A stretch of 64,000 bases of DNA from an uncultured Methanoregulaceae archaeon (lineage in GTDB: Archaea > Halobacteriota > Methanomicrobia > Methanomicrobiales > Methanospirillaceae): contig OY970061.1 of NCBI GenBank assembly GCA_963705255.1, positions 1,888,001-1,952,000 on the forward strand. Reading direction: 5' to 3'. The notes below the pieces were generated by a model, which saw nothing but the letters and a program-made list of their open reading frames with translations, had not been told where the DNA came from and did no database searches. Both the position numbers and the translations under genes were made by a program. Below are positions 39,898 to 60,049 of this stretch, one piece after another (the stretch's first letter is position 1; each line of letters opens with the position of its first letter).

Positions 39898-40197
39898 ATG
39901 GAGTTTATCGAAGTGCATCTGTCACGGAAAACAGCAGACGGATTTGTCATCCCTCTTGGCCCGGCGAACCTCGTCGCGGTCAAAACCGACGTGGGCATGG
40001 TGGGGTGCGGGGCGTTTGATGTTGCAGCGCTTGATTCGTTCAGCTATCCCGCGGCAAAAGTCAGGCCGGCCCTCGGGCCGTCTATCGCGGACACCGACGA
40101 TATTCTCAAGGGAATTATCAAGGAGGCAAACCGCTCGGCAATGGGGCGCGGTATCAAAACCGGCATGACCGGCAAAGAAGCGCTGGAACTGCTCTGA
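39898..40197 (+). CDS. YunC/DUF1805 family protein
   Basis: GMVGCGAFDV and GIKTGMTGKEAL. Confidence 0.8.
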   Translation: MEFIEVHLSRKTADGFVIPLGPANLVAVKTDVGMVGCGAFDVAALDSFSYPAAKVRPALGPSIADTDDILKGIIKEANRSAMGRGIKTGMTGKEALELL

Positions 40198-40256
40198 TCC
40201 CGTTTCCAGAACCCTGCATTTCACTCCGTTTTTGTATTTGGTACGCTATTTAGCGT

Positions 40257-44423: not shown

Positions 44424-44921
44424 CTACCTGTCCCGGAGTACTGCTGACAGGATCTCCAGGTTCCGGCGAAAAAGTGCCTCACCACTCCCGGACAGCCCTT
44501 TTTCAGGCTCCGAACGGTCCGGCTGGATGCCCAGCAGGGTCACCCCTGCCCCGGATTCCTGTGCCAGGAATTCCATGACAACCGAAAGAGGCAGGGCGTG
44601 GGTAGAGAAGAGACCTGCCTGGATATTCTGAGGGTCAATGACCGCGATCGTGCCGGGCTCTGCTCCCATATCGGCTGCATCGAGAAAAAGGGTGTGGTCC
44701 GGCCTGAACCTGCGGACGGGCCCCGTGACGCTTTCCGGTACTGTCCCCGTAAGGAAGACACCGACATGCGACAGGTGCAGCTGATCGATCTTTTTCGCCG
44801 CAACCATGCCAAGCCGGTCAGATGGCAGGAGCTCGTCGCCGACACCAACGATCGCGATGCGGCGGGCCTCTTTCAGCCTGCGCCTCAGGATCGGCCCGAA
44901 ACCGGGATCTACCTGTTGCAT
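44424..44921 (-). CDS. hycI: Hydrogenase maturation endopeptidase
   Basis: VGVGDEL...D, TGTVPES, LDAADMG, STHALPL and LLGIQP; last gene of the hydrogenase operon. Confidence 0.88.
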   Translation of the reverse strand: MQQVDPGFGPILRRRLKEARRIAIVGVGDELLPSDRLGMVAAKKIDQLHLSHVGVFLTGTVPESVTGPVRRFRPDHTLFLDAADMGAEPGTIAVIDPQNIQAGLFSTHALPLSVVMEFLAQESGAGVTLLGIQPDRSEPEKGLSGSGEALFRRNLEILSAVLRDR

Positions 44922-45280
44922 CAGGTAACCACCGCTTCCCGGTCAGTTCCCGAAGGCGAGAGTTCATTTTTCAGGTATATCGCATCGGCCGGGCAATGGC
45001 GCTCGCAGAGCGCACACCGTATGCATTTGAAAACCTCTATCTGCGGCCTTTTTTTACGCACCAGCTTCTTGCCCTTGAACTCAACTTCGCGCTGGTCCGG
45101 CACCATGGTGACGGCATGTGACGGACACACGAGAGAGCACATGGAACATCCTATGCACTTTTCGTCGAGGACTGCAACCCTTCCCCGGAATCCCTGCGGG
45201 ACCGGGACCTTCTCTTTCGGGTACAGGATCGTGACGGGCCTGGATACGAGATTGTGCAACATCTCGGAAAGGACGCTCAT
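44921..45280 (-). CDS. 2x[4Fe-4S] subunit (NuoI-like) of group 4 hydrogenase
   Basis: TILYP, FRGR, CIGCSMCSLVCP and CIRCALCERHCP. Confidence 0.9.
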   Translation of the reverse strand: MSVLSEMLHNLVSRPVTILYPKEKVPVPQGFRGRVAVLDEKCIGCSMCSLVCPSHAVTMVPDQREVEFKGKKLVRKKRPQIEVFKCIRCALCERHCPADAIYLKNELSPSGTDREAVVT

Positions 45281-46251
45281 GCACCCACCCGGATGGAGTT
45301 CATCACAAGCACAACCGCGACCTGCACGAGCGCGGCGCTGGCGATATATTTCCAGCCGATGGTGTTCAGCTGATCTATGCGTATACGGCCTGTAGCAACT
45401 TTTACCGAAGAAAGGATCAGGAGCACGACAAGAGTTTTTGCAAGGAAGAGGAAAAAGCCGCAAATCCAGCCGAGCCATACCGGCGCGATGGTCCATGGGA
45501 TCGTCGGGCCGCCGAGGAATAGTGCCGCGATGAGTGCGCACCCGGTAACACAGGAGACATCGGAGGCAAGGTGCATGAGGGCGAGCCTGCGCCCGGTCAG
45601 CTCTGTCCACGGGCCTGCGACAAGCTCGGTCTCCGCTTCCGGGATATCGAAGGGGGTCCTTTCCAGCTTTGCCTGGAGTCCTATCAGTGCAACGACAAAT
45701 CCTATCGGCTGGAGAACCATAAACCACAGGTGATCCTGCTGCCAGCTCACGATCTCCGAGATCGACCAGGTCCCTGCCATCAGGGCGGGGGTAAGGAGCG
45801 CAAGGAAGAACGGCACCTCGTAGATGAACATCTGGGTTACCGCACGGATCCCCCCTATTGCGGAGTAAATGTTCCGGCTCAGCCAGCCCATGACAAAGAG
45901 GATGATGGTCGGAAGTGCCATGAGATAGAGAACGAGGACCAGATCCCCCTGGAATGCAAGCGGGCTCGCGCTCACGACCGGGATGTAGAGAAATGCGGTC
46001 ATGACCGCGGCCAGAGCGATCACCGGCGCTGCATCAAATACCGGCCTGTCAACACCCTGCGGATCGATGACCTCCTTTCCCAGCATCTTGACAAAATCCG
46101 CGAATGGCTGGAACAGGGGCGGCCCGACCCGGTGCTGCATCCGGGCCGCGATCCTGCGGTCCAGAAATTCAAAGAGCATGGCATATGCCAGCAGGAACAA
46201 AAACCCAGGAAAGAGGAAAATATACCCTATGATGAGGAGGGGATCGGTCAT
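45277..46251 (-). CDS. Membrane subunit (NuoH-like) of group 4 hydrogenase
   Basis: RRIAARMQHRVGPP, QPFADFVK and RTPFDIPEAETELVAG. Confidence 0.92.
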   Translation of the reverse strand: MTDPLLIIGYIFLFPGFLFLLAYAMLFEFLDRRIAARMQHRVGPPLFQPFADFVKMLGKEVIDPQGVDRPVFDAAPVIALAAVMTAFLYIPVVSASPLAFQGDLVLVLYLMALPTIILFVMGWLSRNIYSAIGGIRAVTQMFIYEVPFFLALLTPALMAGTWSISEIVSWQQDHLWFMVLQPIGFVVALIGLQAKLERTPFDIPEAETELVAGPWTELTGRRLALMHLASDVSCVTGCALIAALFLGGPTIPWTIAPVWLGWICGFFLFLAKTLVVLLILSSVKVATGRIRIDQLNTIGWKYIASAALVQVAVVLVMNSIRVGA

Positions 46252-47429
46252 GCCCTCTCCTGTCGCCGGTTGCGAAGACAACTCCGTCTCCTGAGCTCAT
46301 CCCAGGTCACGATACCGGCATTTCCGTCTCCTTTGTCCACAATGGTAATCCTCGACGTGCACGACAGGCAGGGGTCGATCGCCGCAACAATGACGGGTAT
46401 GTCCGCCAGGTTCTGGTTGACCAGGCACGCAGCGACCGAGGTCCAGTTCGCCAGCGTCGGCGTCCGGATGTCGACCCTTTCGACCCGGTCCGTCCCGTTC
46501 GTGCGGATGAAATGCACGAGTTCCCCCCGGGGGGCCTCGTACCGGGAAAGGATTTCCCCTCCGGGCGCCGTCTTTGGCGGGTTGATACGGATCGGGCCTT
46601 CGGGGAGATGTTCGAGACAGGCCCGGACGATCTTCAGGCTCTCCGCAAGTTCGCCGATGCGGACGCAGGTGCGCCCATAGACGTCCCCGGACGTATCCGT
46701 CACCACGTTCCAGGGCACGTCTGCATACACCAGGTAGGGGTCGTCCCTGCGGATGTCATAATCGACACCGCTTGCACGTGCTGTGGGGCCGACCGCGCCA
46801 TATTTCAGGACTTCCTCTCTGGTAAGTTTCCCGATACCCCGGAAACGGAGCAGCATCGTCTCCTGGTTCTGTACCATGTCCACGTACTTGGTTATCCGCT
46901 CTTCGAGGTTGGGCAGGCGCTGTAGGGCCGCATTTACCTGTAAGGGCGTCAGGTCACGGCGTACGCCCCCCACTTCGTTCATGCCATAATGGACGCGGTT
47001 CCCCGACATCTCCTCGAGCGTGTCCTGAACCGCCTCGCGATCGCGCCAGGTCCACATGAAGAGCGTATTGAACCCGATCTCGTGCGCAGCGACACCCAGC
47101 CAGAGGAGGTGGCTGTGCATCCGTTCCAGCTCCCCGATGATCGTGCGGATATACTGGGCCCTGGGAGGGATCGTGAGCTGCATCAGCTCCTCGACTCCCT
47201 TGGCAAAAGCCGTTGAGTGCGAGTGGGAGCAGATGCCGCAGACCCGTTCCAGAAGGGGGAGCGCCCGGATGAAGGTGCGCTGTTCGGCTGCCTTTTCGAT
47301 ACCGCGGTGGGTGTAGGATATGTCGAGTTCGAGACGGACGATCTTCTCGCCGTCGGCTATCACCCGGAAATTCACCGGTTCTTTCAGGGCGGGATGCTGG
47401 GGGCCGATGGGCACGATCACTTCCGGCAT
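46248..47429 (-). CDS. Group 4 [NiFe]-hydrogenase large subunit
   Basis: GPQHP, HRGIE, L1 ERVCGIC and L2 DPCLSCTSR followed by a 33-residue C-terminal extension. Confidence 0.93.
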   Translation of the reverse strand: MPEVIVPIGPQHPALKEPVNFRVIADGEKIVRLELDISYTHRGIEKAAEQRTFIRALPLLERVCGICSHSHSTAFAKGVEELMQLTIPPRAQYIRTIIGELERMHSHLLWLGVAAHEIGFNTLFMWTWRDREAVQDTLEEMSGNRVHYGMNEVGGVRRDLTPLQVNAALQRLPNLEERITKYVDMVQNQETMLLRFRGIGKLTREEVLKYGAVGPTARASGVDYDIRRDDPYLVYADVPWNVVTDTSGDVYGRTCVRIGELAESLKIVRACLEHLPEGPIRINPPKTAPGGEILSRYEAPRGELVHFIRTNGTDRVERVDIRTPTLANWTSVAACLVNQNLADIPVIVAAIDPCLSCTSRITIVDKGDGNAGIVTWDELRRRSCLRNRRQERA

Positions 47430-47909
47430 CTATATCCTCTCCTCCCTGATGCCGCCATAGAACGTATCGGGCCCCGGCTTCCAGTCCTTCCGCAGGGGAT
47501 ACTCATGCTCCGGCCAGTCTTCTCCAAGGATGATCCTCTTCAGGTCAGGATGCCCAGCAAAGACGATACCGAACAGGTCATGGATCTGCCGCTCGTAGAT
47601 ACCCGCCGGGGGCAGGATATCGGACGCTGAACGAATCTCCGGTGCATCGCGGGAGAGTTCCGCGGCAATGGAGATGACCGTGCGGTGAGGGCCGGTCAGA
47701 TGGTAGATCAGTTCCAGCGTCCTGCCATTGTCAGCCGCACTAATCGTTATCAGGCGCTCGCACGCAAGGAATTCCCGGGAGGTTGTTATCGCGTCACGGA
47801 CCCTTTCCGGGGTCGTCGTAATCCTGATCCGGTTTGAGCGGACCTGCTCTGCAGTACCAAATCCCTTCATCGTTTCCATCACAAAATCCAGCGTTAACGG
47901 ACTGGTCAT
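47430..47909 (-). CDS. NuoC-like subunit
   Basis: YERQIHDLFGIVFAGHPDLKRI...YPLRKD. Confidence 0.9.
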   Translation of the reverse strand: MTSPLTLDFVMETMKGFGTAEQVRSNRIRITTTPERVRDAITTSREFLACERLITISAADNGRTLELIYHLTGPHRTVISIAAELSRDAPEIRSASDILPPAGIYERQIHDLFGIVFAGHPDLKRIILGEDWPEHEYPLRKDWKPGPDTFYGGIREERI

Positions 47910-48439
47910 AGCATTGCCTCCACGGAGGGTATCATACCGCCGGGAAACTCGGATCTCTTCTTTTGCCGCCATTCCTTCCCGCCGTGAGCCGCATCCTCCT
48001 GCATGATAGTCAGGCATGTCACGACGGCATTGATGATCTCGTCCGGCCGTGGTGGGCATCCGGCCACGTAGACGTCGACGGGGATGACATCCTCCACGCG
48101 CTGCATGACATGGTACAGGCCGTGGAACACGCCCCCGTCTGCACCGCATGCACCCATGGCGATCACGTATTTCGGTTCGGGTATCTGCTCCCAGACCCGG
48201 CGGAGCCGTGGTGCCTGCTTCAGGGTGACCGGACCGGTGACGATGAGGATATCGGCATGGCGGGGCGAGCCTTTTGAAAGAATCCCGAACCGTTCCACAT
48301 CAAAGCGGGGCATAAGACAGGCGATGATCTCGATATCGCATGCATTGCACCCTCCGCTGTTAAAAATGGTAATCCATGGCGATTTCTGCCGCGCCCAGTT
48401 CACGAGGCGCTGGCTCAGCGAGGCTGCCGGGGCTGCCAT
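47906..48439 (-). CDS. Hydrogenase small subunit (NuoB-like)
   Basis: GGCNACDIE, DVERFG, SPRHAD, GACG and GCPPRP. Confidence 0.93.
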   Translation of the reverse strand: MAAPAASLSQRLVNWARQKSPWITIFNSGGCNACDIEIIACLMPRFDVERFGILSKGSPRHADILIVTGPVTLKQAPRLRRVWEQIPEPKYVIAMGACGADGGVFHGLYHVMQRVEDVIPVDVYVAGCPPRPDEIINAVVTCLTIMQEDAAHGGKEWRQKKRSEFPGGMIPSVEAML

Positions 48440-48569
48440 TGTGTACCATCACCTCCGCCGGCACATATTAACCCGATGATGGGGGCAATACACCGGTTGC
48501 CCGGCGTGATGCCGCTACGGGCTGACGGTTGCCCGTGCGGCGGACCCTGGAACATGCGTCTCTTCCTGC

Positions 48570-48902
48570 TCATTGCTCCCACCTCAGTGCGGTCACGGCA
48601 ACGGCTATTACAAAGAGATATCCCAGCGTCCCCCAGAGCGGCGCATCGGGCGGAGCGATCGCGATGACCAGCGCTGCCACGTGCACGACCGCGAAGAACA
48701 GGGCCACGTAGAAGAACTGGTAGCCAGGCTGGAACGTCTGGGCTTCCGCGATTTCGCCACCGACATAGGGCATCGTCTTGTTGGCAGACGGCCTGAAGGC
48801 CGGCGCGATGGTAGCGGACCACGCATAGATCAGGAAACCCACCGCGAGGGCGAAGGCCAGGACAAGGATCGGCGAGGTCAAGAGATCCAGGGGGGTCATC
48901 AT
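48570..48902 (-). CDS. NuoA-like membrane subunit
   Basis: TM1, K...PYVGGE loop, YQFFYVALFFAVVHV and three TM helices in total. Confidence 0.72.
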   Translation of the reverse strand: MMTPLDLLTSPILVLAFALAVGFLIYAWSATIAPAFRPSANKTMPYVGGEIAEAQTFQPGYQFFYVALFFAVVHVAALVIAIAPPDAPLWGTLGYLFVIAVAVTALRWEQ

Positions 48903-50372
48903 GGCACCCCCCACGTGAAGATCTGCCCGGATGCATGTGAGATCCAGCCATAGAACGGTTCGGGAAAGATCCCGAGGTAGAGCGTGGCTATCGCCAGTAC
49001 TACCACTGCTGCAAGGACACTCAGGGGAATCCCGGGTCTGGTTGCTGCCGGCTGGTCAGTAGGATCTTGTTCACTCCGGGGAAACAGGAGTATTGACAGG
49101 ATCGGGACGTCAGTACCCGAGTGATATGCCGGTGTTGAGTTCGAGGATCAGGCCAAGCACGATCCCTCCCCACATGTATGTGGCGATGCCCGACTGGATA
49201 ACCAGCAGCTTGCCCAGAAAGCCGCAGGTGAATGGCTGTCCGATCAGCCCGAGAATGATCACGGCAAATGCAATGCCCAGAACGGGGTTCCGGGCACCCA
49301 GCCCCTTCATCCGTGCCGTCTCGGAAGACCCGGCACGTTCCGTGAATGCATCGGCTGCGATGAAGGCACCGCTCTTCATCACCCCGTACGCGACGGCATA
49401 GAAAAGACCGGCGGCAAATCCCAGCGGCAGGCTGTACAAGAGACCGATCCCAAACCCCAGCAGGATGTATCCCATCTGGGCCACGCTTGAATAAGCAAGG
49501 ACGCGGCGGAGATCCCGCTGGTTGAGTGCGAGGAGGTTTCCCGCGGTCATCGTGATGACCGCAAAGAATGTCACGACAATACCGACGGTTTTGGGGACCG
49601 TGGCACTGCCTGGCAGAGCAGATAGCGAGAGGAATAACGCGATCAGTACCCCGATCTTCGTTGCCCCAGTCATGATGGCGGTGACACCCACAGGAGCCCG
49701 GCTGTAGGCATCCGGAAGCCACGTGTGCAGCGGAAAGATCGCAAGTTTTACGCCATACCCGATCAGGATGAGGACAGCCGCAAAAATGATGAGCACCTGG
49801 TCCCCGCCGGCAAGGGCGACAGGCAGCGCTGACAGGCTTAAGGTATGCCCCTGGGTATACAGGATAGCCACGCCGAGGAGGGCGGTGATGGTCCCTGCCA
49901 CCCCCTGCGTGAGGTACTTGATGGCAGAGGGAAGTGCCGCCGGGTCTTCCTTGTGCCGGTAGGCGCACAGAGCATACACCGGGATTGCCGAAAGCTCGAC
50001 CGTGACGAAAATGGTAAAGAGATCCCCGGAGAACCCGATCGCCACCGCACCGGTAAGCGCAAGGAGGAAGAGCGGATAATACAGGTGCACCGGTCCTTCC
50101 GGATCGAGACTCCCCTGGGATGCCAGCGCTGCAACGGTGCCGACACCGGTGATGAGGAGCCCCCCCGTAAGGCCGATAAACGGAAGGGTGCCGGGAGAAG
50201 ACCACACCATAATGGAGAGGAGAAGGCAGAATACCGCAAGGAGCCACAGTGCCGTGAGCGCTCCGGTCCAGCGGCGAAGGTGAACGGGAAGAAATTTCGC
50301 GACAGCGTAGACGATGACACCACCTGTTGCGACCATCAGGGGGATGGAAACCGCAATTCCGGCTGGTGTCAC
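48899..50372 (-). CDS. Proton-conducting antiporter-like subunit (NuoN/MrpD-like), +1 frameshift near 49111
   Basis: DLFTIFVTVEL, AIKYL, KLAIFPLHTWLPDAY, LAYSSVAQMG and GFLGK. The C-terminus VPILSILLF...LGIFPEPF...GVP* is in a shifted frame. Confidence 0.85.
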
Positions 50373-53300
50373 CGCCCCACCTCCACGATGACGAGAGCAA
50401 GGGCGGCCACCAGCACGCTCCCGAAGACCGCCAGGTTCCAGTTTATATCGCGGTTTTCCGCTCTCATGGCAGATCTTCCGATGAGGGTAAGGGTATCGGC
50501 AGCATCTTCTGCATAACCGTAACTCGCCCTGAATGCGGCCTGAATCCCCCCGGCACACGCGGTAACGCCGTGCCCGGCGGCCATGTACACGGTGTCAAAA
50601 TCGTTTACATGGATATCGTGTGGCTCAAGCCACCTCTTCCCCACGGTAAAGAAGAAGAGGGCTGCACTCCCCAGGATCAGGAGGGTTCCGCCCAGGAGTA
50701 CCGGATCATATGCCACGTAGGTGGTCGGGTAGGGAAGGATGCCATAAAGGACGGCAGGGTATATCCCGATCACGATGCACAACGCGGCAATTCCGAGCAT
50801 ACCGGCCTGCATGAGAAGCGGAGGATCCGAAGCCTCCGTCTTCCCGGGCCGGAGGAAAGCGAAATATCCCAGCTTGAGGAATGATACGAACGTCCCGAAC
50901 GATGCGATCTCAAGGAGCACCCAGATCCAGATGCTCACATGCTCCGCTGCCATGAGCACCATTCCTTTGGAGACGAACCCGTTGAAGAGCGGGACCCCGG
51001 AGATCGAAAGCGCGGCGATCCAGAATGCAAGGGCGGTCACCGGCATCTTTTTCTGGAGCCCGCCGATGCGGCTGAGCAGGTTCTCCCCGGTCTTCCATAT
51101 TATCACGCCGACTGCCATGAAGAGGAGGGTCTTGTAGAGGATATTGTTGACGAGGTGGGCCATGCCGCCGTCAAGGCCGAGCTGCCCGATCCCGTTTGCT
51201 GCCCCCAGCCATCCCAGGATCCCGATGCCGGCGACCATGTAGCCCACCTGGGAGATGATATGGTACGAGAGGAGACGGCGCATGTCGTTCTGGAAGACCG
51301 CAAAGGTTACGCCATACACTGCCATGAGCGCCCCCATGAACGCGATGTATTCTGTCCCGGGCTGGGCCCGTGCGAGGAGATAAACCGCTGCTTTTGTCGT
51401 ATAAACACTCAAAAAGACGCTCGCGACAAAATTGGCACGCGGGTAGGCATCCGGAAGCCAGGTATGCAGGGGGATGAAGGCCATATTCACGCCAATCCCC
51501 AGCACGATCAGGACTGAGGCCCACACTTGGTAGGTGGCGACCGGGATCCCGGCAAGCGGCCCCACGATGGGAGATCCTCCTCCGACAAAGAGCAGCGCAA
51601 TCCCTGCACCAAGAAGGGCCCCCCCGAGCCCGTGGAACAGGAGGTACCGGAACCCCGCCCCGATCGCTTCCCCGCCTTCCTGCCAGATGAGGAACGTCGA
51701 AGTGACTGCCATCAGCTCCCAGAAGATGAGAAGGGTGATCCAGTCACCTGCAAAGACAACGCCGAGCGAAGCGCCGGCATAGAGGAGCGCGATGAGGTGG
51801 AGGCGGGGTGCTGCGACCACTGCGGCATACAGGATGGCAAAAAACGTGATGGTGGCAAAGATGACTCCCATCAGGTACGAGAGGCTGTCGACTCTCATGA
51901 GGGTCAGGGTATACCCCATGAAGGGAAGGTTCCACTGCATCACACCGGTCGAAAGCGATCCTGTGAAGTACCCTCCGGGAAGGAGGAGAACGTCAACAAG
52001 GGCAATGCCTCCCAGCACGACAAGACAGCCCTGCCGGGCGCGTCCGGACAGCGCGAGGACGAGCGGCGCACCGATCAGGAAGATCAGGAAGGGCGGCACC
52101 ACCGGGCCGAAAGAGAAGGTCGCGGTGACGAGGAGGGCGCTATGGGTCACACTTGCAGCGACCTGTGCGCAGAGCGCAAAGGGGCTGTACGGGACAACAG
52201 TCCAAAGGCCGAGAACGACCACTCCTGCCGCGGTTATCACCACCGGTACGCGGAGCGTCCAGCGGACGGGGGGTGTCTCACCTTCAGAGGGCCGGAAAAA
52301 TGCCCGGATAATGATGGGCAGGAAATAGGCGAGGTTCAGCACGCTCGATGCCACGAGAACGAGGAGTATCCACCAGTCCGCAGCGGTTCCCGCTCCGATC
52401 CCCAGTGAGAGATACCACTTGGCGATAAAGCCCGCCATCAGCGGCAGCCCTACCATGCTCAGGGTCGCGAGGGTGAAAGCAGCGAACTCCCAGGGCATCT
52501 TCCTGCCGATACCGTCGAGCTGCGAGATCTCGGTCTTCCCAGTCTCCACGGATACCGCACCGGCGACAAAGAACATGGTCAGCTTACCGAACGCGTGGGC
52601 AGCAAAGGCGTAGGTCGCCCCGATCACGGCCGCAGCCCGCCCTGCATCGGAAACGCCCGAAATTCCCGGAGGCAGCAGTACCGCGGCACCCAGCACCATG
52701 TAGCTGAGCTGGCTGATGGTGGAGTACGCGAGCCGCAGCTTGAAGTTATCCTGTAGCAGGGCAAGGAGGGAACCGACGATGATCGTGATGACCGCAGCCG
52801 CAATAACGAGATCCTGGAGCCCCAGCCCGGCCATCAGGCCGGGTCCGTACAGGTACAGCATCAGTCTCATGAGCCCGAAGACCCCGGCGTTCACGACGGC
52901 CACGGCATGGAGCAGCCCGCTGACCGGGGTGGGGGCTACCATGGCGTCCGGCAGCCACCCGTGCAGGGGCACGAGTGCCGCCTTCACGCCGAAACCCGAA
53001 AGGAGGAGGATGAAGGCGAGGCGGGCAAACCCGGGGTCGATGGAGGCAATACCGGGAGCGCCTCCGGCAACAAAGTCGAGCGAGTGCGATGTTACAAAGA
53101 GGATCATGGCGCCGCCAACGAACGCGATCCCGCCATTCAGGGTGTAAAAGAGATATTTCCGTCCTGCCGCAAACGCCTCCGGTGTCTCGGTATGCACGAC
53201 CAGAGGATAGGTAGCAATCGTGATGAGCTCGTAGAAGACCAGGAGGGAGAAGAGATTGGAACTGAGCGCGACACCCATGACCGCGCCGATGACGAGAGCA

Positions 53301-53653
53301 AAGCTCGCATAATAGCGGGTCTGGGCATGTTCGTGCACCCCCCGCATATATCCGATGTTATAGACCGTGGTTATGATCCAGAGCAGCGAGGCGATGCTCG
53401 CAAACAGGAGACCCAGTGCATCCGCCGTGAACTGGAGGCCCAGACCGGGAAGTACCTGGAGCGCAGGTGTGGACACGGGCTGTGTCGCAAACGCCGAAGG
53501 GAGGGAGAGGATACAGAAGACGAACGTCAGGATGGCCGAAACGAGAGATGCGGCTTCACGTGCATCCGGATGGTTCCGTAACAGGATTACCGCGCCGGAA
53601 CCGGCAAGAGGGACCGTCACGATGAGCGCGAGCATCCACGGCTGGACGTCCAT
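50369..53653 (-). CDS. Fused tandem antiporter-like subunit (two MrpD/NuoLM-type modules, 1094 aa)
   Basis: Two full motif sets: FYELIT/GRKY/KAALVPLHGWLP/LAYSTISQ/GFIAK and FWELMA/GFRY/PLHTWLPDAY/LSYHIISQ/GFVSK. Confidence 0.88.
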   Translation of the reverse strand: MDVQPWMLALIVTVPLAGSGAVILLRNHPDAREAASLVSAILTFVFCILSLPSAFATQPVSTPALQVLPGLGLQFTADALGLLFASIASLLWIITTVYNIGYMRGVHEHAQTRYYASFALVIGAVMGVALSSNLFSLLVFYELITIATYPLVVHTETPEAFAAGRKYLFYTLNGGIAFVGGAMILFVTSHSLDFVAGGAPGIASIDPGFARLAFILLLSGFGVKAALVPLHGWLPDAMVAPTPVSGLLHAVAVVNAGVFGLMRLMLYLYGPGLMAGLGLQDLVIAAAVITIIVGSLLALLQDNFKLRLAYSTISQLSYMVLGAAVLLPPGISGVSDAGRAAAVIGATYAFAAHAFGKLTMFFVAGAVSVETGKTEISQLDGIGRKMPWEFAAFTLATLSMVGLPLMAGFIAKWYLSLGIGAGTAADWWILLVLVASSVLNLAYFLPIIIRAFFRPSEGETPPVRWTLRVPVVITAAGVVVLGLWTVVPYSPFALCAQVAASVTHSALLVTATFSFGPVVPPFLIFLIGAPLVLALSGRARQGCLVVLGGIALVDVLLLPGGYFTGSLSTGVMQWNLPFMGYTLTLMRVDSLSYLMGVIFATITFFAILYAAVVAAPRLHLIALLYAGASLGVVFAGDWITLLIFWELMAVTSTFLIWQEGGEAIGAGFRYLLFHGLGGALLGAGIALLFVGGGSPIVGPLAGIPVATYQVWASVLIVLGIGVNMAFIPLHTWLPDAYPRANFVASVFLSVYTTKAAVYLLARAQPGTEYIAFMGALMAVYGVTFAVFQNDMRRLLSYHIISQVGYMVAGIGILGWLGAANGIGQLGLDGGMAHLVNNILYKTLLFMAVGVIIWKTGENLLSRIGGLQKKMPVTALAFWIAALSISGVPLFNGFVSKGMVLMAAEHVSIWIWVLLEIASFGTFVSFLKLGYFAFLRPGKTEASDPPLLMQAGMLGIAALCIVIGIYPAVLYGILPYPTTYVAYDPVLLGGTLLILGSAALFFFTVGKRWLEPHDIHVNDFDTVYMAAGHGVTACAGGIQAAFRASYGYAEDAADTLTLIGRSAMRAENRDINWNLAVFGSVLVAALALVIVEVGR

Positions 53654-53976
53654 CAGAGGTCCCCCCCCCGCACGAGCCTTGCAATGGAGGTGCTATCGAA
53701 CGTTTTCCAGGCCCGTTTGAGCAGGATAACCAGCGCGAGAGCAAGGCCGGCAACCACTGCCTCGATGACGATCAGGGTGAAAACGACTGCTTGGGAGACC
53801 CCCGTATCACCGGCGAGGTATCCCCCGAGAATAAAGACGAGACTGACCCCTTTTCCAAGGAATTCGACCCCCATCACCAGCTTGATCAGGTGCGTGCGCG
53901 AGATCAGGGCCGCAAGCCCGGCCGCGAAAAGCGCGCCTGCGCAGACAACAAGGATCAGGGGGCCGCCCGGGATCAC
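53653..53976 (-). CDS. NuoK/MrpC-like small membrane subunit
   Basis: HLIKLVMGVE and QAVVFTLIVIEAVVAGLALAL. Confidence 0.82.
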   Translation of the reverse strand: MIPGGPLILVVCAGALFAAGLAALISRTHLIKLVMGVEFLGKGVSLVFILGGYLAGDTGVSQAVVFTLIVIEAVVAGLALALVILLKRAWKTFDSTSIARLVRGGDL

Positions 53977-54215
53977 GGCGGCATCCCCCGGGATCGATCA
54001 TGGCCGAGGAGCAGAAGGATCGAGAAAACACCTGCCAGGATAAGAAAACCCTGTACAACAACCTCGAACGTACGACCGCTCCACATCGCTCCTCCGGGTC
54101 CTGCTGCCGGAGGGGGGGCGACAGGCCAGGCAGCGGTAGCCGGCAGTACTGCGCTCAGAAAAAGGAGGAGAAAGGCCGCCCCGAGGATGATCGCACCGAC
54201 CGTCTTTGCCCTCAT
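53973..54215 (-). CDS. Small membrane subunit (NuoJ C-half/MrpB-like)
   Basis: TM helix, then MWSGRTFEVVVQGFLILAGVFSILLLL; overlapping start/stop coupling on both sides. Confidence 0.65.
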   Translation of the reverse strand: MRAKTVGAIILGAAFLLLFLSAVLPATAAWPVAPPPAAGPGGAMWSGRTFEVVVQGFLILAGVFSILLLLGHDRSRGMPP

Positions 54216-54475
54216 GCAGGCACCTCTTCCTCTTCCCCGCCGGTAAGTATGAGCACAACCAGGAAGAGGACCGCGACAAGCCCTGCACCGACCGTCAGTT
54301 CCAAGGCTCCGGCGTACGGCGAGGACAGGACGAAGAAGAGCGCCGCAAGACTGGCACTGCTCACCGCATATGCGACAATGGCACGGATGAGGTTTGTCTG
54401 CAGTATGGCAACAGCTGCCATGACGACTGCTGCGATCCCGAGGGCTGCTATAACGAGGAGATCGATGTCAAGCAT
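54212..54475 (-). CDS. DUF4040/NuoJ N-half-like membrane subunit
   Basis: NLIRAIV...LFFVLSSPYAGALELTVGAGL. Confidence 0.78.
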   Translation of the reverse strand: MLDIDLLVIAALGIAAVVMAAVAILQTNLIRAIVAYAVSSASLAALFFVLSSPYAGALELTVGAGLVAVLFLVVLILTGGEEEEVPA

Positions 54476-54962
54476 CGGTAATCACACGCCTTTGACGTGA
54501 TCCCCGGATTGAAAAGGTGGCAGAACTGCTGACATTCCGGCGGTTCATTCCCGGATACCGTGAAAAGCAAAGAACGGAATCTACAACTGACACTGCATGG
54601 ATAGAACAGCAAGGATCTGTCATCTCGGCCTTCCTGATAAGACAGCGAACCCAGACATTCCGGATGCCGAACGCATGGTTACCGTATTGATCTTCTGGTC
54701 AGTTCCCGTTACATGGCTGCGTATTTCCTGATATTGTGCTAAATACGTTCATCTTCCACAAAGGAGAACATAAACCTTTTTAAATTATGCTGGCAGGCTG
54801 TTCCCGGAAACCCCCGCCCCCCGGGAGATGACAGCCTCGACGTAACAGGCTTGCGATGGACAGGAAGAACAATTCAGTTTTGGAGAGGGCCGCGGTAACC
54901 TCAAAAGAGACTTGGTTTTGACCCGGGTACTGACCCGGAATACCGGCAGCAATTCTGCCGTA

Positions 54963-55346
54963 TTATACCGCTGCCTCGTCCTTCTTCTCAGGCTTTGGGG
55001 GTTTTACGTACGTGATAGTGACCGTCTCCACACTCCGGGAGGTTACCGGAGCAGAGTACTGGGTGTCCATGAACAGGCATTTCACCGGGCATGTGTCGAC
55101 ACACGAGTTGCACACCACGCACCGGAGCCGGTCGATCTGCCAGGTCTTTTCTTCCTTATTGACCACCAGTGCCTGCGACGGGCATTTCCTCTGGCAGGTC
55201 CCGCAGGAGATACATTTACTCTCGTCGATGGTTACGTGCCCCCTGGTGAGAGCGGTTTTTTTTGCGGGCTCTGCCGGGTAGAGGATCGTTGCCGGGCGGT
55301 TGAGGACGGTCCTCAATGCCGTTTTTACCATTTCGAAAAATGCCAT
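54963..55346 (-). CDS. echF: Ech hydrogenase subunit F
   Basis: PATILYP, TRGH, CISCGTCQRKCP and CVVCNSCVDTCP. Confidence 0.9.
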   Translation of the reverse strand: MAFFEMVKTALRTVLNRPATILYPAEPAKKTALTRGHVTIDESKCISCGTCQRKCPSQALVVNKEEKTWQIDRLRCVVCNSCVDTCPVKCLFMDTQYSAPVTSRSVETVTITYVKPPKPEKKDEAAV

Positions 55347-55351
55347 GGCAC

Positions 55352-56431
55352 TCACCGCTCCGTACAACTTATGCAGGGATCGATGGACAATACGATGACC
55401 GGGACATCGGCAAGCTCGCAGCCCTGGAGCATCCGGATCAGCGGGGGGATATTGGTCAGGGTCGGGGTCCTGATACGGGACCTGACCAGGAATTTCGTAC
55501 CGTTTCCCTTGATGTAATGGACAAGCTCTCCCCGGGGCTGTTCGGCGCGGGTGAAATACTCCCCGTTCGGCGTCCCGGTCACTTTCACGTCGATCGGCCC
55601 CTCGGGGATCTTGGTGATCGCCTGCCTGATGATATCCATCGATGTGAACAGTTCCCGTGACCTGACTACGCACCGGGAATAGCAGTCCCCTCCGCTCTCG
55701 CTGACAGTCTCAAGGTTGAGCTTCCCGTAGGCGGCATACCCGGTCTTCCGGAGATCGACATCGACACCGCTTGCGCGGGCCGTGGGCCCCGATGCTCCAA
55801 GATGATATGCATCCTCTTTTGAGAGCACCCCTATGTCTTTTGTGCGGTGCCTGACCGAATCGTCCCGGAGAAAGACGGTCGTCAGCTCATTGATCTCCTT
55901 ATGGAGTGTATCGAGGTCCTTTTTCATCCCGTCGAGTTTCTCACCGCTAATATCGCGCCTGACCCCGCCGATCTTGCAGGACCCCTGGATGACCCGGCCA
56001 CCCGTCGTCTGTTCCATTACGTCGAGAACGCGCTCGCGGATCCTCCAGGCATTCATGAAGAGGTTTTCGAACCCGAAGGAATCGGCAAAAAGCCCAAGCC
56101 AGAGCAGATGGGAGTGCAGCCTCGAATATTCCGACCAGATAGTGCGGAGGAACACTGCCCGTTCGGGCACCTCGATATTCATGATCTTTTCGATCCCCTG
56201 GCAATACGTCATCCCGTGGATGAAACTGCAGATCCCGCACGTCCTCTCGGCAATATAGACATACTCGGTAAACTCCCGCTTCTCCACGAGTTTTTCAAAG
56301 CCCCGGTGGATATACCCGATTGAGGGGATCACGTCCACGACCTTTTCGTCCTCCAGGACGAGGTCGAGGTGGATCGGCTCGGGGAGGACCGGGTGCTGCG
56401 GCCCGAAGGGGATGATGATCTGCTTGGTCAT
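55352..56431 (-). CDS. echE: Ech hydrogenase large subunit E
   Basis: PFGPQHPVLPEP, ERTCGIC and terminal DPCISCTER with no extension. Confidence 0.95.
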   Translation of the reverse strand: MTKQIIIPFGPQHPVLPEPIHLDLVLEDEKVVDVIPSIGYIHRGFEKLVEKREFTEYVYIAERTCGICSFIHGMTYCQGIEKIMNIEVPERAVFLRTIWSEYSRLHSHLLWLGLFADSFGFENLFMNAWRIRERVLDVMEQTTGGRVIQGSCKIGGVRRDISGEKLDGMKKDLDTLHKEINELTTVFLRDDSVRHRTKDIGVLSKEDAYHLGASGPTARASGVDVDLRKTGYAAYGKLNLETVSESGGDCYSRCVVRSRELFTSMDIIRQAITKIPEGPIDVKVTGTPNGEYFTRAEQPRGELVHYIKGNGTKFLVRSRIRTPTLTNIPPLIRMLQGCELADVPVIVLSIDPCISCTER

Positions 56432-56796
56432 GGTTTCTCTCCTTTCGTTATGGTGACACCGAACGGGTGTTTTATCGCGGTCCGGATGAATGTCCCCTTG
56501 AAATCGATATTCATGCCCCTGACCTGGATGCCAAAGAGGTCGTGCATCTCGTTCTCGTACACGAATGCCCCCCAGTACATCCCCGAGATGCTGGGCACTT
56601 CCGTTTCAGCAGTGACCGTGATCCGCAGGTTCTTGAAGACGAAGTCCTTGTCGAAGGAGTAGTTGATCTCAAATGCGTCACCGACTTTCGTGCAGCCGAT
56701 CTGGACAAGACGATATCCCTCATTTCTGAACTGCTCGACACCCCCGAAAAGTTTTCCGACATCGGTGGGTATGATTGTCTGTTCCTCTGTTGTCAA
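56428..56796 (-). CDS. echD: Ech hydrogenase subunit D
   Basis: GYRLVQI, YSF, VPSIS and YENEMHDLFG. Confidence 0.9.
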   Translation of the reverse strand: MTTEEQTIIPTDVGKLFGGVEQFRNEGYRLVQIGCTKVGDAFEINYSFDKDFVFKNLRITVTAETEVPSISGMYWGAFVYENEMHDLFGIQVRGMNIDFKGTFIRTAIKHPFGVTITKGEKP

Positions 56797-57260
56797 GCCG
56801 CATCACCTGCTGCTACCCGGCCAGCTGCTTTCTTCTCTGACATGGCCTGTCGTTTCGATTCAAGAATTCCCAGGGCCTGTACCACGCCATCGATGATCGA
56901 TTCCGGCCGGGCTGCACACCCGGTAACATAGACATCGACCGGGATGACCTTGTCGATGCCGCCCATGACATTGTAGCATTCCCGGAAGATCCCGCCGGAC
57001 GTAGCGCAGATGCCGATTGCGACCACGACTTTCGGGTCCGGGATCTGTTCATACGTGTTGATGAGTACCTGACGGTTCTGTTCATTGACGCTCCCGGTGA
57101 CGAGGAAGATATCGGCATGCTTCGGGTTGCCGGTATTGACGATCCCGAACCGTTCCACATCGTAGAGAGGAGTCAGGGCTGCCAGGACTTCGATGTCGCA
57201 GCCGTTGCAGGATGATGCATCATAGTGGATGATCCAGGGAGATTTTTTCAGGTAGGTCAT
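56793..57260 (-). CDS. echC: Ech hydrogenase small subunit C
   Basis: KSPWIIHYDASSCNGCDIE, GNPKHAD and GCAARPE. Confidence 0.94.
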   Translation of the reverse strand: MTYLKKSPWIIHYDASSCNGCDIEVLAALTPLYDVERFGIVNTGNPKHADIFLVTGSVNEQNRQVLINTYEQIPDPKVVVAIGICATSGGIFRECYNVMGGIDKVIPVDVYVTGCAARPESIIDGVVQALGILESKRQAMSEKKAAGRVAAGDAA

Positions 57261-58138
57261 GGTGCGACCACCGCTCTCAGGTAATATAATACTCCGAGGT
57301 TTACAATACCGAGCGTCCCGGCAACAAGCCATGCGCTCCGCAGTGTCAGCTGCCATTTGACACGCGACATCGTATTATCGATGAGTATCTCAAGGAAATA
57401 GGCGACGATGATCGCGGCGATGGCGATCAGGGGGTTGAACCCGAAGAAGAGGTAGACAACCCCGAGCAGGAATACGTACTCGTACCAGTGGGCGATCTCG
57501 ATCTTCCCGAGGTTGGGGCCTGCGAAATCGGTTGTAACACCCTTGACGATCTCCTGGTGCGCATGGTGGGACGTGGAGAGGTCGAAGGGTGACTTCCTCA
57601 GCTTGATCGTGAGGACGATCAGGTAGCCGATGAAGACACCGGGCAGAACCAGGATGATAGGTTTACCGGACGATACGATATCGCTCACATAGAAACTGTG
57701 GGTGACCATGTACATCCCCACCGCGGTGAAAATGATCATCGGTTCGTAGGCGATGATCTGAATGAGCTCGCGTTCCGCCCCGATATGACTGTAGGGAGAG
57801 TACGATGAATAGGCCCCGAGCACGAGGAATATGTGCGAGAGCGTGAACGCGAATATGACGAGCAGCATGTCCCCTCCCGAGAAGAACAATGCACCCGCGA
57901 CCACCATGAAGACAAGATAGCTCAGCACATAGAAATTCTGGGTCGTTGTCACCACCGGGTTCTCTTTCTCGAAGAGCTTGCCGACGTCGTAGAATGGCTG
58001 GATTATAGGCGGTCCTACCCGACCCTGCATCCTTGCAGTCACCTTCCGGTCGATCCCGGCAACAAGCCCGCCTATCACCGGGGCAAGGAGGATATACACT
58101 GCCGCAGTCATAATGGAGGACCAGGGTTCTTCGATCAC
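57257..58138 (-). CDS. echB: Ech hydrogenase subunit B
   Basis: DRKVTARMQGRVGPP and KSPFDLSTSHHAHQE. Confidence 0.94.
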   Translation of the reverse strand: MIEEPWSSIMTAAVYILLAPVIGGLVAGIDRKVTARMQGRVGPPIIQPFYDVGKLFEKENPVVTTTQNFYVLSYLVFMVVAGALFFSGGDMLLVIFAFTLSHIFLVLGAYSSYSPYSHIGAERELIQIIAYEPMIIFTAVGMYMVTHSFYVSDIVSSGKPIILVLPGVFIGYLIVLTIKLRKSPFDLSTSHHAHQEIVKGVTTDFAGPNLGKIEIAHWYEYVFLLGVVYLFFGFNPLIAIAAIIVAYFLEILIDNTMSRVKWQLTLRSAWLVAGTLGIVNLGVLYYLRAVVAP

Positions 58139-60049
58139 AGAATCACCCCCGCGATCAGGACACCGGCAATGAGCACGAGCCCCCAGCAGAGCAGGACACC
58201 GATCATGAAGAGTCTCTCCTCACCGAAATAATTCCGCAGGTAGTAATTCGACAGGACAAGGTCCCGGGTCGTCCCCATCGATCCTGCAAACTTCATCTCT
58301 CCTACGGTCGAGCCTCCCCCCATGTACGGGTGCGTGATGACCTGGTCGCGCCTCTGGAAGAGCATGGAAAAAGGCATGATCATCAGGAGTGCAAGCATCA
58401 GGATCATGATGGTGAGGTTCGCCTGGGCAAGACGGGTTGTTTCCCCGTAAATATGCATCACGAACGGCTCGATCAGCGTCGACGATATCAGGGGGAAGAT
58501 GAGAGCGACGATGACAACCAGTGCGGTAAGGATGGACAGGATCGCCCACATCTCCGTCTTTACCTTCTGCTCGACATTTTCCTGGTTGCGCATGACGGAG
58601 ATGATCTTCCCCATCCACTTGCTCCAGAAGAAGAGGCTTGCCGACCCTCCGAAGGCAAGGATGGTAATGAAGACGAGGCCGAAGGGTGCCGTGACGAACG
58701 CCTCGATTGCCGCCCATTTGGAGATGATCATGCCGAAGGGTGCGAGGAACATCCCGGCCATGCCGATGAACATCATGAGAGCGACCTTCGGCATGCGTTC
58801 AATGAGGCCCCCCATATCCTCGATGTCCCTACTGCCGATACTCTGCTCCACGGTGCCGACACAGAGAAACAAGAGTGATTTGGCTACCGCGTGGAATATG
58901 AGCAGCAGGATCGCCACCCACATGAGGTTGTAGGTCCCGACTCCTGCACATGCGACGATGAGGCCGAGATTTGCGATGGTCGAATAAGCGAGTACTTTCT
59001 TCGCATTGCTCTGGGATATCGCGATGAATGACGCGAGGAGGAAGGTGATCCCTCCAACGAGAGCGATCATGAGACCCTCCGTCGTTCCGGACAACACCGG
59101 AGCAAACCGGATAATGATATACACACCCGCTTTTACCATGGTGCTTGAATGGAGCAGGGCCGAGACCGGTGTCGGGGCGACCATGGCGCCGACCAGCCAC
59201 GAGGAAAAGGGCATCAGGGCAGCTTTCGTGATACCGGCAAAACTGATCAGGACTGCCGGGACCAGTGCTATAACGTAGCCAGAGCTTACCAGGGTATTGA
59301 GTTCAAACAGCCTGCCGGAAGGATCCATCAGGGCGAGATAAACCAGTGCTGCGATAAACGCGACCCCGCCGAGAAGGTTCATGGAAAGTGCGAGGAATGC
59401 ATTCGTGGTGGCTTCCGGTGCTCTGCGAATACCCGATCAGGACGAACGAACAGAACGTGGTGATCTCCCAGAAGAAGAAGACCCAGAGGAGGTTATTGGA
59501 AAATACGAGACCAAACATGGCCGACAGGAAGACAAACATCCAGAAAAAGAACGATTTTCTCCGGTCTTTTATTCCGGCGTGCTGGATATGGTACGTCTCC
59601 ATGTACCCAAGTGAATACACGCATATCAGGCTCCCGATAATGCCGATGATCATAGCCATGATGATGGAGAGCTGGTCGATGAGGAGGTTGTTCCCGAAAT
59701 GAGCGCCAGGAATAAGTCCGGTCTCTAAAAATATCAGCAATCCGGCCTGCAATAGTATCAGGACAACGGTGAACAACTTGCGGTGTTTTATTCCCACGTA
59801 AAGGATGTATACTGCAAGGAGCAGTTCGATAACGAACATGAGCTGCCCGACCTGTTCGGAGCCGAACGCGAAATAGAGCGATCCCTGATCAAATGCTACG
59901 AAAAGCAGGCACAGCACTATCAGGCCGATAACCAGCGCGGAGATCCTGACGATCCAGTTGCGATCCGCATCGCGCCGCACAAGAACCATGAACAGCGCCG
60001 TAATTAAAGGAAACAGGATGAGGAACACTAAAAACTGCGAAATCTGCAC
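58135..60049 (-). CDS. echA: Ech hydrogenase subunit A, frameshift near 59422
   Basis: FWEITTFCSFVLIGY in frame 1; NAFLALSMNLLGG...GAMVAPTPVSALLHSSTMVKAG in frame 2. Confidence 0.92.

Follow-up and report, generated by a model that had tools for sequence, protein, structure and literature searches.

Organization of the Operon

We examined a 64,000-nt stretch of archaeal DNA (hereafter the window; contig OY970061.1 of GenBank assembly GCA_963705255.1, positions 1,888,001 to 1,952,000), focusing on a set of 12 open reading frames (ORFs), designated g1 through g12 in the order of transcription, that occupies positions 44424-54475 of its minus strand. Gene content and sequence motifs make it highly probable that the products of this operon form a [NiFe] hydrogenase that is bound to the membrane, translocates ions, and has ferredoxin as its electron partner. 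The DNA comes from a Methanoregula; the closest relative is 97% identical and bears the same genus label.

Each of the 12 products was scanned against Pfam and NCBIfam, and the resulting assignments correspond to the transcription order J1-J2-K-[LM fused]-N-A-B-C-D-H-I-HycI. An initial annotation, made by a model from the sequence alone, had proposed a mostly coupled 12-gene operon with precisely this order, and its description holds: all 12 ORFs were found on the minus strand where it had placed them, and nine of the 11 gene junctions abut or overlap by 1-4 nt. Its individual subunit calls likewise stand when judged by Pfam, NCBIfam, profiles built from orthologues, and a natural gene fusion in the related locus L049 that is described below. 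The overlap between g1 and g2 comprises 4 nt, and the g7/g8 junction is an ATGA overlap. The sole true gap is a non-coding spacer of 130 nt between g6 and g7 (48440..48569), which divides the membrane-arm genes (g1-g6) from those for the catalytic head and its anchor (g7-g12). In 11 relatives, ORF calling gives a length of 21-133 nt for this spacer.

Two kinds of module that accompany related enzymes were reported as absent by the initial annotation, and both absences were upheld. None of the 12 products matches the Pfam families for MrpE, MrpF, or MrpG (MNHE, MrpF_PhaF, and PhaG_MnhG), all three of which are detected in a canonical Mbh locus (L072). Similarly, inspection of the operon and of the ORFs scanned at 38.7-62.6 kb for formate dehydrogenase, carbon monoxide dehydrogenase (CODH), NuoEFG, and FpoF revealed no electron-input module.

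Catalytic Subunits and Maturation

The product of g9 (46248..47429, minus strand; 393 aa), which matches the families Complex1_49kDa and NiFeSe_Hases, carries the two cysteine motifs of a [NiFe] large subunit: L1 (CGICSHSH) begins at residue 64 and L2 (DPCLSCTSR) at residue 352, followed by a C-terminal tail of 33 residues. The initial annotation had noted both Ni-binding motifs and the extension, and each is present. As given in the legend to Figure 7 of PMC7886697, the motifs are defined as C[GS][ILV]C[AGNS]xxH for L1 and as [DE][PL]Cx[AGST]Cx[DE][RL]-like for L2. Both are retained in 42 of 42 near-full-length g9 orthologues when the L2 pattern is slightly relaxed, since position 8 is Ser in g9 rather than Asp or Glu. 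Among proteins in the Protein Data Bank (PDB), g9 is most similar to MbhL (298 bits), followed by HycE (270 bits) and Nqo4 (214 bits), and its tail aligns with that of Escherichia coli HycE.

The product of g12 (44424..44921, minus strand; 165 aa; PF01750, 43.5 bits) is a maturation endopeptidase of the HycI type: it scores 75.3 bits against TIGR00072, for which the cut-off is 47.45, and 89.9 bits against TIGR00142, which is under the cut-off of that model. The large subunit of the adjoining Ech operon, EchE, has the L2 motif at its very C terminus and lacks a tail for cleavage; therefore, the HycI-type protease serves g9, and the view that this hydrogenase has its own protease is sustained. 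HypD is encoded in the same genome.

The remaining subunits of the predicted head are encoded by g7, g8, and g11. The NuoB-like small subunit encoded by g7 (47906..48439, minus strand; PF01058, 108 bits) has cysteines at positions 31, 34, 98, and 128, which form the CxxC...C...C pattern for one [4Fe-4S] cluster; the CxxC form of the NuoB-like subunit is the one characteristic of hydrogenases. It is followed by a NuoC-like protein, g8 (47430..47909, minus strand; 159 aa; PF00329, 96 bits). The NuoI-like protein encoded by g11 (44921..45280, minus strand; 119 aa) matches Fer4 families and, under the cut-off, TIGR01971 (88.9 bits). It contains two CxxCxxCxxxCP motifs, at residues 42 and 86, for a pair of [4Fe-4S] clusters, and by analogy is likely to be the point at which electrons enter from ferredoxin.

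These features bear directly on whether the complex is a hydrogenase at all. The NCBIfam models that score highest with g9 are those for NuoD (324 bits) and FpoD (294.5 bits), both under their cut-offs, and many g9 orthologues carry the annotation NuoD from JGI; the operon might thus encode an Fpo- or Nuo-like ferredoxin:acceptor oxidoreductase that merely resembles a hydrogenase. The four Ni-ligand cysteines are, however, present in all 42 orthologues, the tail of g9 comes with a dedicated HycI, and NuoD forms a separate clade in the tree described below, so that we regard this alternative as extremely improbable.

Integrity of the g5 Reading Frame

As assembled, g5 stops at position 49110, and the last ~70 residues of its product reside in another frame. 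Alignment with the related loci L043 and L004 reveals one extra base at position 49111 of the window. This base is missing from the contigs of all four public sequencing runs that were compared, one of which contains 0.96 of the sampled words and is otherwise identical over 1654 bases. The g5 frame is also continuous in all six relatives inspected, including L043. With the extra base removed, g5 (48899..50372, minus strand) encodes ~490 aa, as it does in relatives, and its stop codon overlaps the start of g6; the apparent gap of 207 nt after g5 is therefore an artefact of the spurious base, which arose in the assembly and does not represent a mutation.

A related feature occurs in the adjoining echA (58135-60049), where a net insertion of 1 nt near 59421 relative to genome G143 breaks the gene into a pair of overlapping ORFs. 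Because echA forms a single ORF in the loci L159 (638 aa) and L160 (650 aa), this split probably reflects the same kind of error. The genome is represented by a single 2.60-Mb contig that is nevertheless scored as only 89.5% complete, which fits the presence of scattered indel errors. These three observations, namely the truncated g5, the split echA, and the low completeness of a one-contig genome, could also be taken to indicate that the operon is a decaying remnant from which no working enzyme is produced. For g5 itself this explanation was ruled out by the four runs, and with every catalytic motif of the complex intact we consider decay of the operon very unlikely.

Small Membrane Subunits and Anchor

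Four small membrane proteins are encoded by g1, g2, g3, and g6, and the initial annotation had assigned the first two to the N- and C-terminal parts of NuoJ. The three-helix product of g1 (54212..54475, minus strand; 87 aa) matches positions 2-66 of the 146-position Oxidored_q3 profile at E 1.2e-7, with a weak score of 32 bits against a cut-off of 33.2, and is also MbhD-like (E 3.6e-4). When g2 (53973..54215, minus strand; 80 aa; two helices) is considered alone, no meaningful match is obtained in Pfam, nor is any found in the PDB with a profile of 16 sequences. In L049, however, g1 and g2 are naturally fused, and the resulting protein of 180 aa covers positions 2-144 of the same profile at 48 bits and can be aligned over its whole length with a NuoJ of 179 aa from a Bathyarchaeia locus. 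The interpretation of g1 and g2 as a split NuoJ is thus supported, with g2 assigned by way of this fusion and its alignment with the Bathyarchaeia protein.

The product of g6 (48570..48902, minus strand; ~110 aa) has no match above threshold in Pfam or NCBIfam. A profile of 24 orthologues nevertheless finds NuoA, ND3, and Nqo7 proteins as its nine best matches in the PDB, at E values of 0.0014-0.034 and over nearly the full length, with MbhI next at E 0.042. Weak matches to Oxidored_q4 are seen for 22 of the 24 family members, the best at 1.4e-4 and all under the gathering score. An AlphaFold2 model (pLDDT 78) places helices at residues 10-31, 60-81, and 88-107, with a loop of 28 residues after the first transmembrane (TM) helix; a first TM helix, a long loop, and then TM2 and TM3 constitute the layout of NuoA. 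A Foldseek search with this model returned no match at E<=0.001 and an ND3 chain at E 6.4 only, which is uninformative for a lone three-helix query. When compared with the MbhI family of Methanomicrobiales by hhalign, g6 aligns only in TM1 and the start of the loop (37 columns, probability 50%). Collectively, these results support the assignment of g6 as a divergent NuoA-like subunit. Profile searches of the small membrane ORFs had been proposed as a check on the initial annotation, and they took g6 to NuoA and g1 plus g2 to NuoJ rather than to unrelated families.

The third protein, g3 (53653..53976, minus strand; 107 aa; PF00420, 52.9 bits), belongs to the NuoK/MrpC/MbhG group and is equidistant from MbhG (33.8 bits) and E. 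coli NuoK (30.8 bits) among PDB sequences. The larger NuoH-like membrane anchor is encoded by g10 (45277..46251, minus strand; 324 aa; PF00146, 284.6 bits), which in the same comparison is closest to NdhA (142 bits) and Nqo8 (137 bits), followed by MbhM (113 bits) and HycD (81 bits).

Antiporter-Like Modules

Three antiporter-like modules are distributed over two genes. In g4 (50369..53653, minus strand; 1094 aa), two stretches matching Proton_antipo_M (PF00361) occur in tandem, as expected for the fused double antiporter that had been proposed. Pyrococcus furiosus MbhH is the best PDB match for both halves (135 and 125 bits), followed by MrpA, and the two modules are encoded by separate ORFs in one related locus (L038). 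The third module, g5, scores 210.8 bits against the NCBIfam NuoN model, and its intact orthologue from L043 is most similar to mycobacterial NuoN (165 bits) and MbhH (149 bits) in the PDB.

Residues important for ion translocation were read from alignments with E. coli NuoL, NuoM, and NuoN. As a reference we took the key residues of NuoM to be E144, K234, K265, and E407, numbers that were subsequently verified against the NuoM sequence. At these positions, the L043 orthologue of g5 has E, K, K, and K, the N-terminal half of g4 has E, K, N, and K (key residues E142, K224, and K412), and the C-terminal half of g4 has E, N, K, and K (E646, N723, K754, and K896). The channel charges kept in g5 (E/K/K/K) and in the N-terminal half of g4 (E/K/-/K) support a function in ion pumping. 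Beyond the last core helix of g4, residues 1005-1092 comprise a non-hydrophobic stretch of ~65 residues with a raised hydrophobic moment and then a final TM helix, as judged with a crude script for hydropathy and hydrophobic moment; this region looks like a short lateral helix with its anchor.

The distal pumps differ among related loci. In 28 loci the K and A genes are 4.56-4.9 kb apart; the corresponding distance is 3.2-3.6 kb in six others (L035, L036, L039, L052, L048, and L065), which encode two pumps rather than three. In these six, and in a seventh two-pump locus (L053) that was not part of the distance set, the pump encoded first is a genuine homologue of NuoL, with 38-45% identity to the E. 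coli protein. The two MbhH/Mrp-type modules of g4 in the long loci stand where the two-pump relatives have a NuoL homologue. In two genomes (G001 and G159), the complete operon is also present in a second, diverged version (L070 and L069, respectively), in which the large subunit is 47-51% identical. Within G001, the g4 proteins of the two copies are 78% identical, versus 33-63% for the nine other subunits that were compared. The second copy of G001 (L070, 9914-19490) is convergent with the orthologous copy, from which it is separated by ~90 bp, and the second operon copy has no hycI of its own.

Phylogeny of the Large Subunit

Trees were constructed from 129 representatives clustered at 50% and from anchor sequences taken from the window, related loci, and E. 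coli; fragments shorter than 340 aa, four frameshifted Chloroflexi loci, L050, and L024 were left out. The Mbh sequences in the trees do not include any from Thermococcales: a scan of contigs with an Mbh-type alignment gave 80 loci, all of them from Methanomicrobiales or from metagenome-assembled genomes (MAGs) of unclassified methanogens.

In a FastTree analysis of 171 rows, g9 groups with Chloroflexi, Bathyarchaeia, and Asgard-labelled rows on the NuoD side of the tree, and shares with the Hfo hydrogenases of Bathyarchaeia one group of 53 rows (support 90). A quick tree of 85 rows under the LG+C20 model defines a g9 clade composed of Methanoregulaceae and Thermoplasmata-labelled rows (support 100), together with separate clades for Chloroflexi (100), Bathyarchaeia Hfo (100), the Mbh type (99), Hyc/Hyf (99), Ech (100), and NuoD (100). 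In this tree the g9 clade joins the Chloroflexi at 83 and the paralogues at 80, and the backbone is not resolved by it. The neighbours of g9 mostly bear MAG labels (Anaerolineales, Pelolinea, Bathyarchaeota, Promethearchaeota/Hodarchaeota, Synergistales, and Thermoplasmata), and Infirmifilum is the sole isolate-type name among them.

By this analysis g9 lies outside the Ech, Mbh, and Hyc/Hyf clades. Four [NiFe] large-subunit loci are present in the genome, namely g9, EchE, a frame of 460 aa, and a weak match in an Eha-like cluster, and the Eha large subunit matches g9 across residues 6-108 only. Considered with the differences in subunit composition described below, these results bear out the initial annotation in its claim that the complex does not correspond to the characterized Ech, Eha, or Mbh types, and the phylogeny that it had named as a check did not move g9 into the Mbh or Hyc/Hyf clade.

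Distribution and Synteny

Orthologues of g9 at an identity of at least 73% were found in 12 of 201 Methanomicrobiales genomes. Within the family, such orthologues occur in 15 of 121 genomes and in four of 19 genera, including five of 17 genomes of the host genus (the window's own genome, G000, among them). A complete genome of the same genus (G081) also carries the operon. The best 120 public protein clusters for g9 are 77-97% identical to it, and DNA of the operon is present in metagenomes from peat, soil, and freshwater sediment, where orthologues are common.

A survey of synteny across Methanomicrobiales, likewise suggested at the outset, found the gene order conserved throughout the orthologous loci. 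It is kept in all those of Methanoregulaceae and also in MAG contigs labelled Thermoplasmata or "Euryarchaeota" (68-78% identity). The Chloroflexi loci, at 44-53% identity, have the order J-K-pump-pump-A-B-C-D-H-I-HycI. Contigs labelled Thermoplasmata, "Euryarchaeota," and, in one case, Planctomycetota (L020, L021, L025-L027, L035-L039, L044, and L052) have orthologues 68-78% identical that are nested within Methanomicrobiales, a placement that would be explained either by transfer between phyla or by mis-binning.

Canonical Mbh, with MrpE/F/G, MbhD, and one MbhH as in L072, is encoded in 57 of the 121 family genomes. In none of the 121 does it occur together with the complex described here, and 49 have neither; in one genus, four of 11 genomes have the complex and three have Mbh. 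These are raw counts from related genomes that are not independent samples, and they describe a pattern rather than constitute a test. The lack of co-occurrence fits a scenario in which the two enzymes fill the same physiological slot.

Genomic Surroundings

Directly upstream of g1, and arranged head-to-tail with it, lies an operon that by Pfam encodes the six-subunit Ech hydrogenase (echABCDEF, 54963..60049, minus strand). The 487 nt between echF and g1 (54476..54962, minus strand), with an AT-rich stretch near 54765-54790, are likely to contain the putative promoter and 5' leader of the 12-gene operon. This region has no Rfam match at E<=1, an Rfam scan of the entire window was likewise negative, and no tandem repeats were found. 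Among 26 related loci with at least 2.5 kb of upstream sequence, 18 have Ech upstream of g1. All 18 are labelled Methanoregula or Methanomicrobiales, 16 of them specifically Methanoregula or Methanoregulaceae, and the other eight loci are without the linkage. The tandem of Ech and the 12-gene operon is likewise found in a fully assembled genome from the genus (L074).

A membrane H+-pyrophosphatase (60411-62564, plus strand; H_PPase, 845 bits) is divergent from the Ech operon, so that three ion-translocating systems are encoded within 18 kb. Downstream of the 12-gene operon is the gene for the small subunit of DNA polymerase D. Two adjacent radical-SAM genes (38696-41342, minus strand), whose products contain CofH/MqnC C-terminal domains, probably encode the two subunits of F0 synthase for coenzyme F420.

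The DNA identity between positions 36001-61000 and the nearest relative (L043/L159, genome G143) is mosaic. It is mostly 95-98% at 39-55 kb, with one 1-kb tile at 91.8%, and at 60-61 kb, versus 84-94% at 36-39 kb and across the Ech operon at 55-60 kb, which suggests recombination between close lineages. Transfer of the 12-gene operon alone was considered and rejected, because the 39-55 kb segment of high identity includes unrelated genes and is not specific to the operon.

Proposed Function

The observations above point to a hydrogenase of the following design. Electrons would pass between ferredoxin and the NiFe site of g9 by way of the two clusters of g11 and the single cluster of g7, and g9 would be matured when HycI cuts off its 33-residue tail. 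The redox head is predicted to sit on the NuoH-like anchor g10, which would be linked through g6, g1 plus g2, and g3 to a chain of three antiporter modules, with the NuoN-like g5 next to the anchor and the fused MbhH/Mrp-type pair of g4 at the far end. The C-terminal amphipathic helix of g4 and its last TM helix probably clamp this arm. The coupling ion is probably H+, as no MrpEFG-type sodium module is encoded. The core of this proposal, that of an ion-translocating, ferredoxin-linked hydrogenase, draws its support from the conserved L1 and L2 motifs (42/42), the four cysteines of g7, the two motifs of g11, HycI and the tail it would cleave, HypD, the conserved gene order, and the lack of an input module.

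As to direction, the likeliest proposal, although with no more than about an even chance of being right, is that in this hydrogenotrophic methanogen the enzyme runs "backwards," with the ion gradient driving electrons from H2 to ferredoxin at the very low H2 levels of peat. The extra pump modules might then provide more ions per H2 than does the six-subunit Ech; a higher ion stoichiometry, as conceived in the initial annotation, is an inference. According to our own arithmetic with textbook potentials, the reduction of ferredoxin (approximately -500 mV) at 1-10 Pa H2 requires ~39-45 kJ per H2, equivalent to ~3-4 ions at 120-150 mV. A need for this many ions would give a three-pump enzyme a role that a one-pump Ech cannot fill. 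The reading as a whole, including the electron path, the architecture of the arm, and the ferredoxin-reducing direction, has in our estimation an even chance of being correct.

The alternative in which the same architecture operates mainly in the opposite direction, oxidizing ferredoxin, evolving H2, and pumping ions out as Mbh does, is in our estimation less likely. In its favour, the best structure match of g9 is the H2-evolving MbhL, followed by HycE, the distal pumps are MbhH-like, canonical Mbh and the complex exclude one another across the 121 family genomes, and relatives are found in Anaerolineales, Chloroflexia, and Thermoplasmata-labelled MAGs, in which such an enzyme could serve fermentation; in methanogens it could serve growth on formate or internal cycling of H2. 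Cytochrome-free hydrogenotrophic methanogens, in contrast, consume H2 and need reduced ferredoxin, and their energy-converting hydrogenases are generally assigned to ferredoxin reduction. A case in point is Eha, for which a role in reducing ferredoxin for formylmethanofuran dehydrogenase is suggested in PMC2686161.

A second alternative holds that the operon provides the hydrogenase half of a hydrogenlyase, the donor module of which (formate dehydrogenase, Ni-CODH, or another enzyme) is encoded elsewhere and docks on the NuoI-like g11. The combination of three antiporter-like modules with a HycI-type protease does recall E. coli Hyf, and Methanoregula is listed in a 2026 paper among the genera with Ni-CODH/ECH loci (PMC13077300). 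Arguing against such an arrangement, neither the operon nor the ORFs scanned at 38.7-62.6 kb include a HycB/HyfA connector, FdhF, or CooS (the rest of the genome was not searched for CODH or formate dehydrogenase), and g9 lies outside the Hyc/Hyf clade. We therefore consider the hydrogenlyase quite unlikely.

Several observations weigh against our favoured proposal of a three-pump, ferredoxin-reducing hydrogenase, or at least against parts of it. The TM7 lysine position in the C-terminal half of g4 (N723) is an invariant Asn in all 20 orthologues, so the presence of three modules need not mean that there are three working channels, and the lateral helix attributed to g4 depends on the crude script noted above. 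The direction cannot be read from sequence, and the hosts of the Chloroflexi and Thermoplasmata-labelled relatives are probably fermenters in which H2 evolution would be expected. The operon is dispensable, given that only five of 17 genomes of the genus contain it; no RNA datasets are among the public runs that match positions 46248-50400; and the backbone of the large-subunit tree leaves the deep position of g9 unsettled.

The replacement of a NuoL homologue by the two modules of g4 raises the further idea that the distal arm is a swappable cassette that sets the number of ions translocated per H2. Under this scheme, the three-pump enzyme would have taken over the role of Mbh and would serve as a "low gear" beside the "high gear" of Ech, reducing ferredoxin when H2 is too low for Ech. 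Taken jointly, these propositions are unlikely to be correct in full. If the swap of pump cassettes is real, it would be a concrete case of the modular evolution that has been proposed for this enzyme superfamily. If the idea of a higher stoichiometry is true, it would help to explain how peat methanogens reduce ferredoxin at very low H2 and would bear on the thresholds for methane emission; if it is wrong, the complex simply adds another entry to the catalogue of a family that has received little study. To our knowledge, no complex-I-like hydrogenase has been purified so far. A genus that has cultured members and a complete genome with the operon may make this version easier to study than those of Bathyarchaeia or Asgard archaea. 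Complex-I-like hydrogenases are of broader interest because PMC7886697 and PMC8165549 present them as extant relatives of the enzyme ancestral to respiratory complex I.

Comparison with Known Systems

The joint occurrence of NuoB-, NuoH-, and NuoI-like subunits and at least one antiporter-like subunit in a single operon, together with the L1 and L2 motifs of the large subunit, is the arrangement that marks group 4 hydrogenases. Moreover, counterparts of all eleven core subunits are present along with the Ni ligands and no input module, which is the combination typical of the Hfo-like, or complex-I-like, enzymes. The list of Methanomicrobiales hydrogenases in PMC2686161 comprises Eha, Ech, and Mbh and includes no such type. 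A literature search for this enzyme in Methanoregula and Methanomicrobiales, from which subscription journals were mostly absent, likewise found only accounts of canonical Mbh, Ech, and Eha.

The group 4e Ech encoded directly upstream is, like the complex, a ferredoxin-linked enzyme with B-, C-, D-, H-, and I-type subunits, and EchE is 43% identical to g9. It differs in having one antiporter-like subunit, no A, J, or K types, and no tail on the large subunit. Like the complex, E. coli Hyf (group 4a) has three antiporter-like subunits (HyfB, HyfD, and HyfF), and its large subunit ends in a tail that can be cleaved off. Hyf additionally has HyfA and HyfE and is linked to formate, with hyfR and focB adjoining, but no set of NuoA, NuoJ, and NuoK types is annotated, and its clade is distinct from that of g9. 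The same parts list is found in the 11-subunit Fpo- and Nuo-like complexes without an input module that occur in Methanothrix, Methanomassiliicoccales, and many anaerobes, for which ferredoxin is the presumed donor (PMC7886697). As described in that source, these complexes have lost the Ni ligands, and their acceptor is methanophenazine, quinone, or unknown, whereas the operon retains both the ligands and a protease.

The Mbh hydrogenase of P. furiosus (group 4d, PDB 6CFW) provides the best structure match for g9 and for both halves of g4. In Mbh, too, membrane genes are followed overall by genes of the I-J-K-L-M-N type, and a HycI-type protease is encoded nearby. The canonical Mbh locus L072, however, encodes MrpE/F/G and a single MbhH pump, whereas the operon specifies three pump modules and none of MrpE/F/G. 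Furthermore, g6 is a full three-helix NuoA-like protein that has only TM1 and the loop in common with MbhI, g10 is closer to NdhA and Nqo8 than to MbhM, and Mbh sequences form a clade of their own.

Among Asgard archaea, Atabeyarchaeia and Freyarchaeia are reported to encode a group 4 hydrogenase of the complex-I-like kind, equipped with a lateral helix and additional antiporters (PMC11291895), and it resembles the complex in joining a group 4 hydrogenase to several NuoL/M/N-like and Mrp-like subunits. According to that report, genes for Hdr, a group 3 hydrogenase, and ATP synthase accompany it, whereas here the adjoining system is Ech, and the nearest Asgard-labelled cluster (P0143) falls outside the g9 clade.

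The best-described counterpart is Hfo, the Fpo-like 11-subunit [NiFe] hydrogenase of Bathy-6 Bathyarchaeia, which PMC7886697 assigns to HydDB group 4g and predicts to draw on the membrane potential for the reduction of ferredoxin by H2; it is not known to have been purified. Similar clusters are reported in the same source for Pyrodictium delaneyi and Candidatus Methanomethylicus. According to a 2026 survey, HydDB group 4g is polyphyletic (PMC13582414). As in Hfo, counterparts of A, B, C, D, H, I, J, and K and of three antiporter-like subunits are all encoded in the operon, the L1 and L2 motifs are intact, and both the NuoEFG/FpoF input and the Mrp sodium module are absent. The two differ in that the Bathyarchaeia locus L058 follows the order A-B-CD-H-I-J-K-L-M-N, with C and D fused, J whole, and L, M, and N separate, whereas the operon does not have the nuo/fpo order A-B-C-D-H-I-J-K-L-M-N. 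The large subunits are 44-47% identical and belong to separate clades, and the distal pumps of the operon are of the MbhH/Mrp type rather than the NuoL/M type.

The design is thus one that has already been published for Bathyarchaeia and Asgard archaea; its presence in a methanogen is unusual, but the type of enzyme is known. What distinguishes the present variant is its gene order, the split J subunit, the fused Mbh-type double pump, the dedicated protease, the methanogen host, and the adjoining Ech. Judging from the best structure matches, the complex appears to be a mosaic in which a hydrogenase-like head is combined with a foot and a proximal pump resembling those of complex I and with distal pumps resembling those of Mbh and Mrp.

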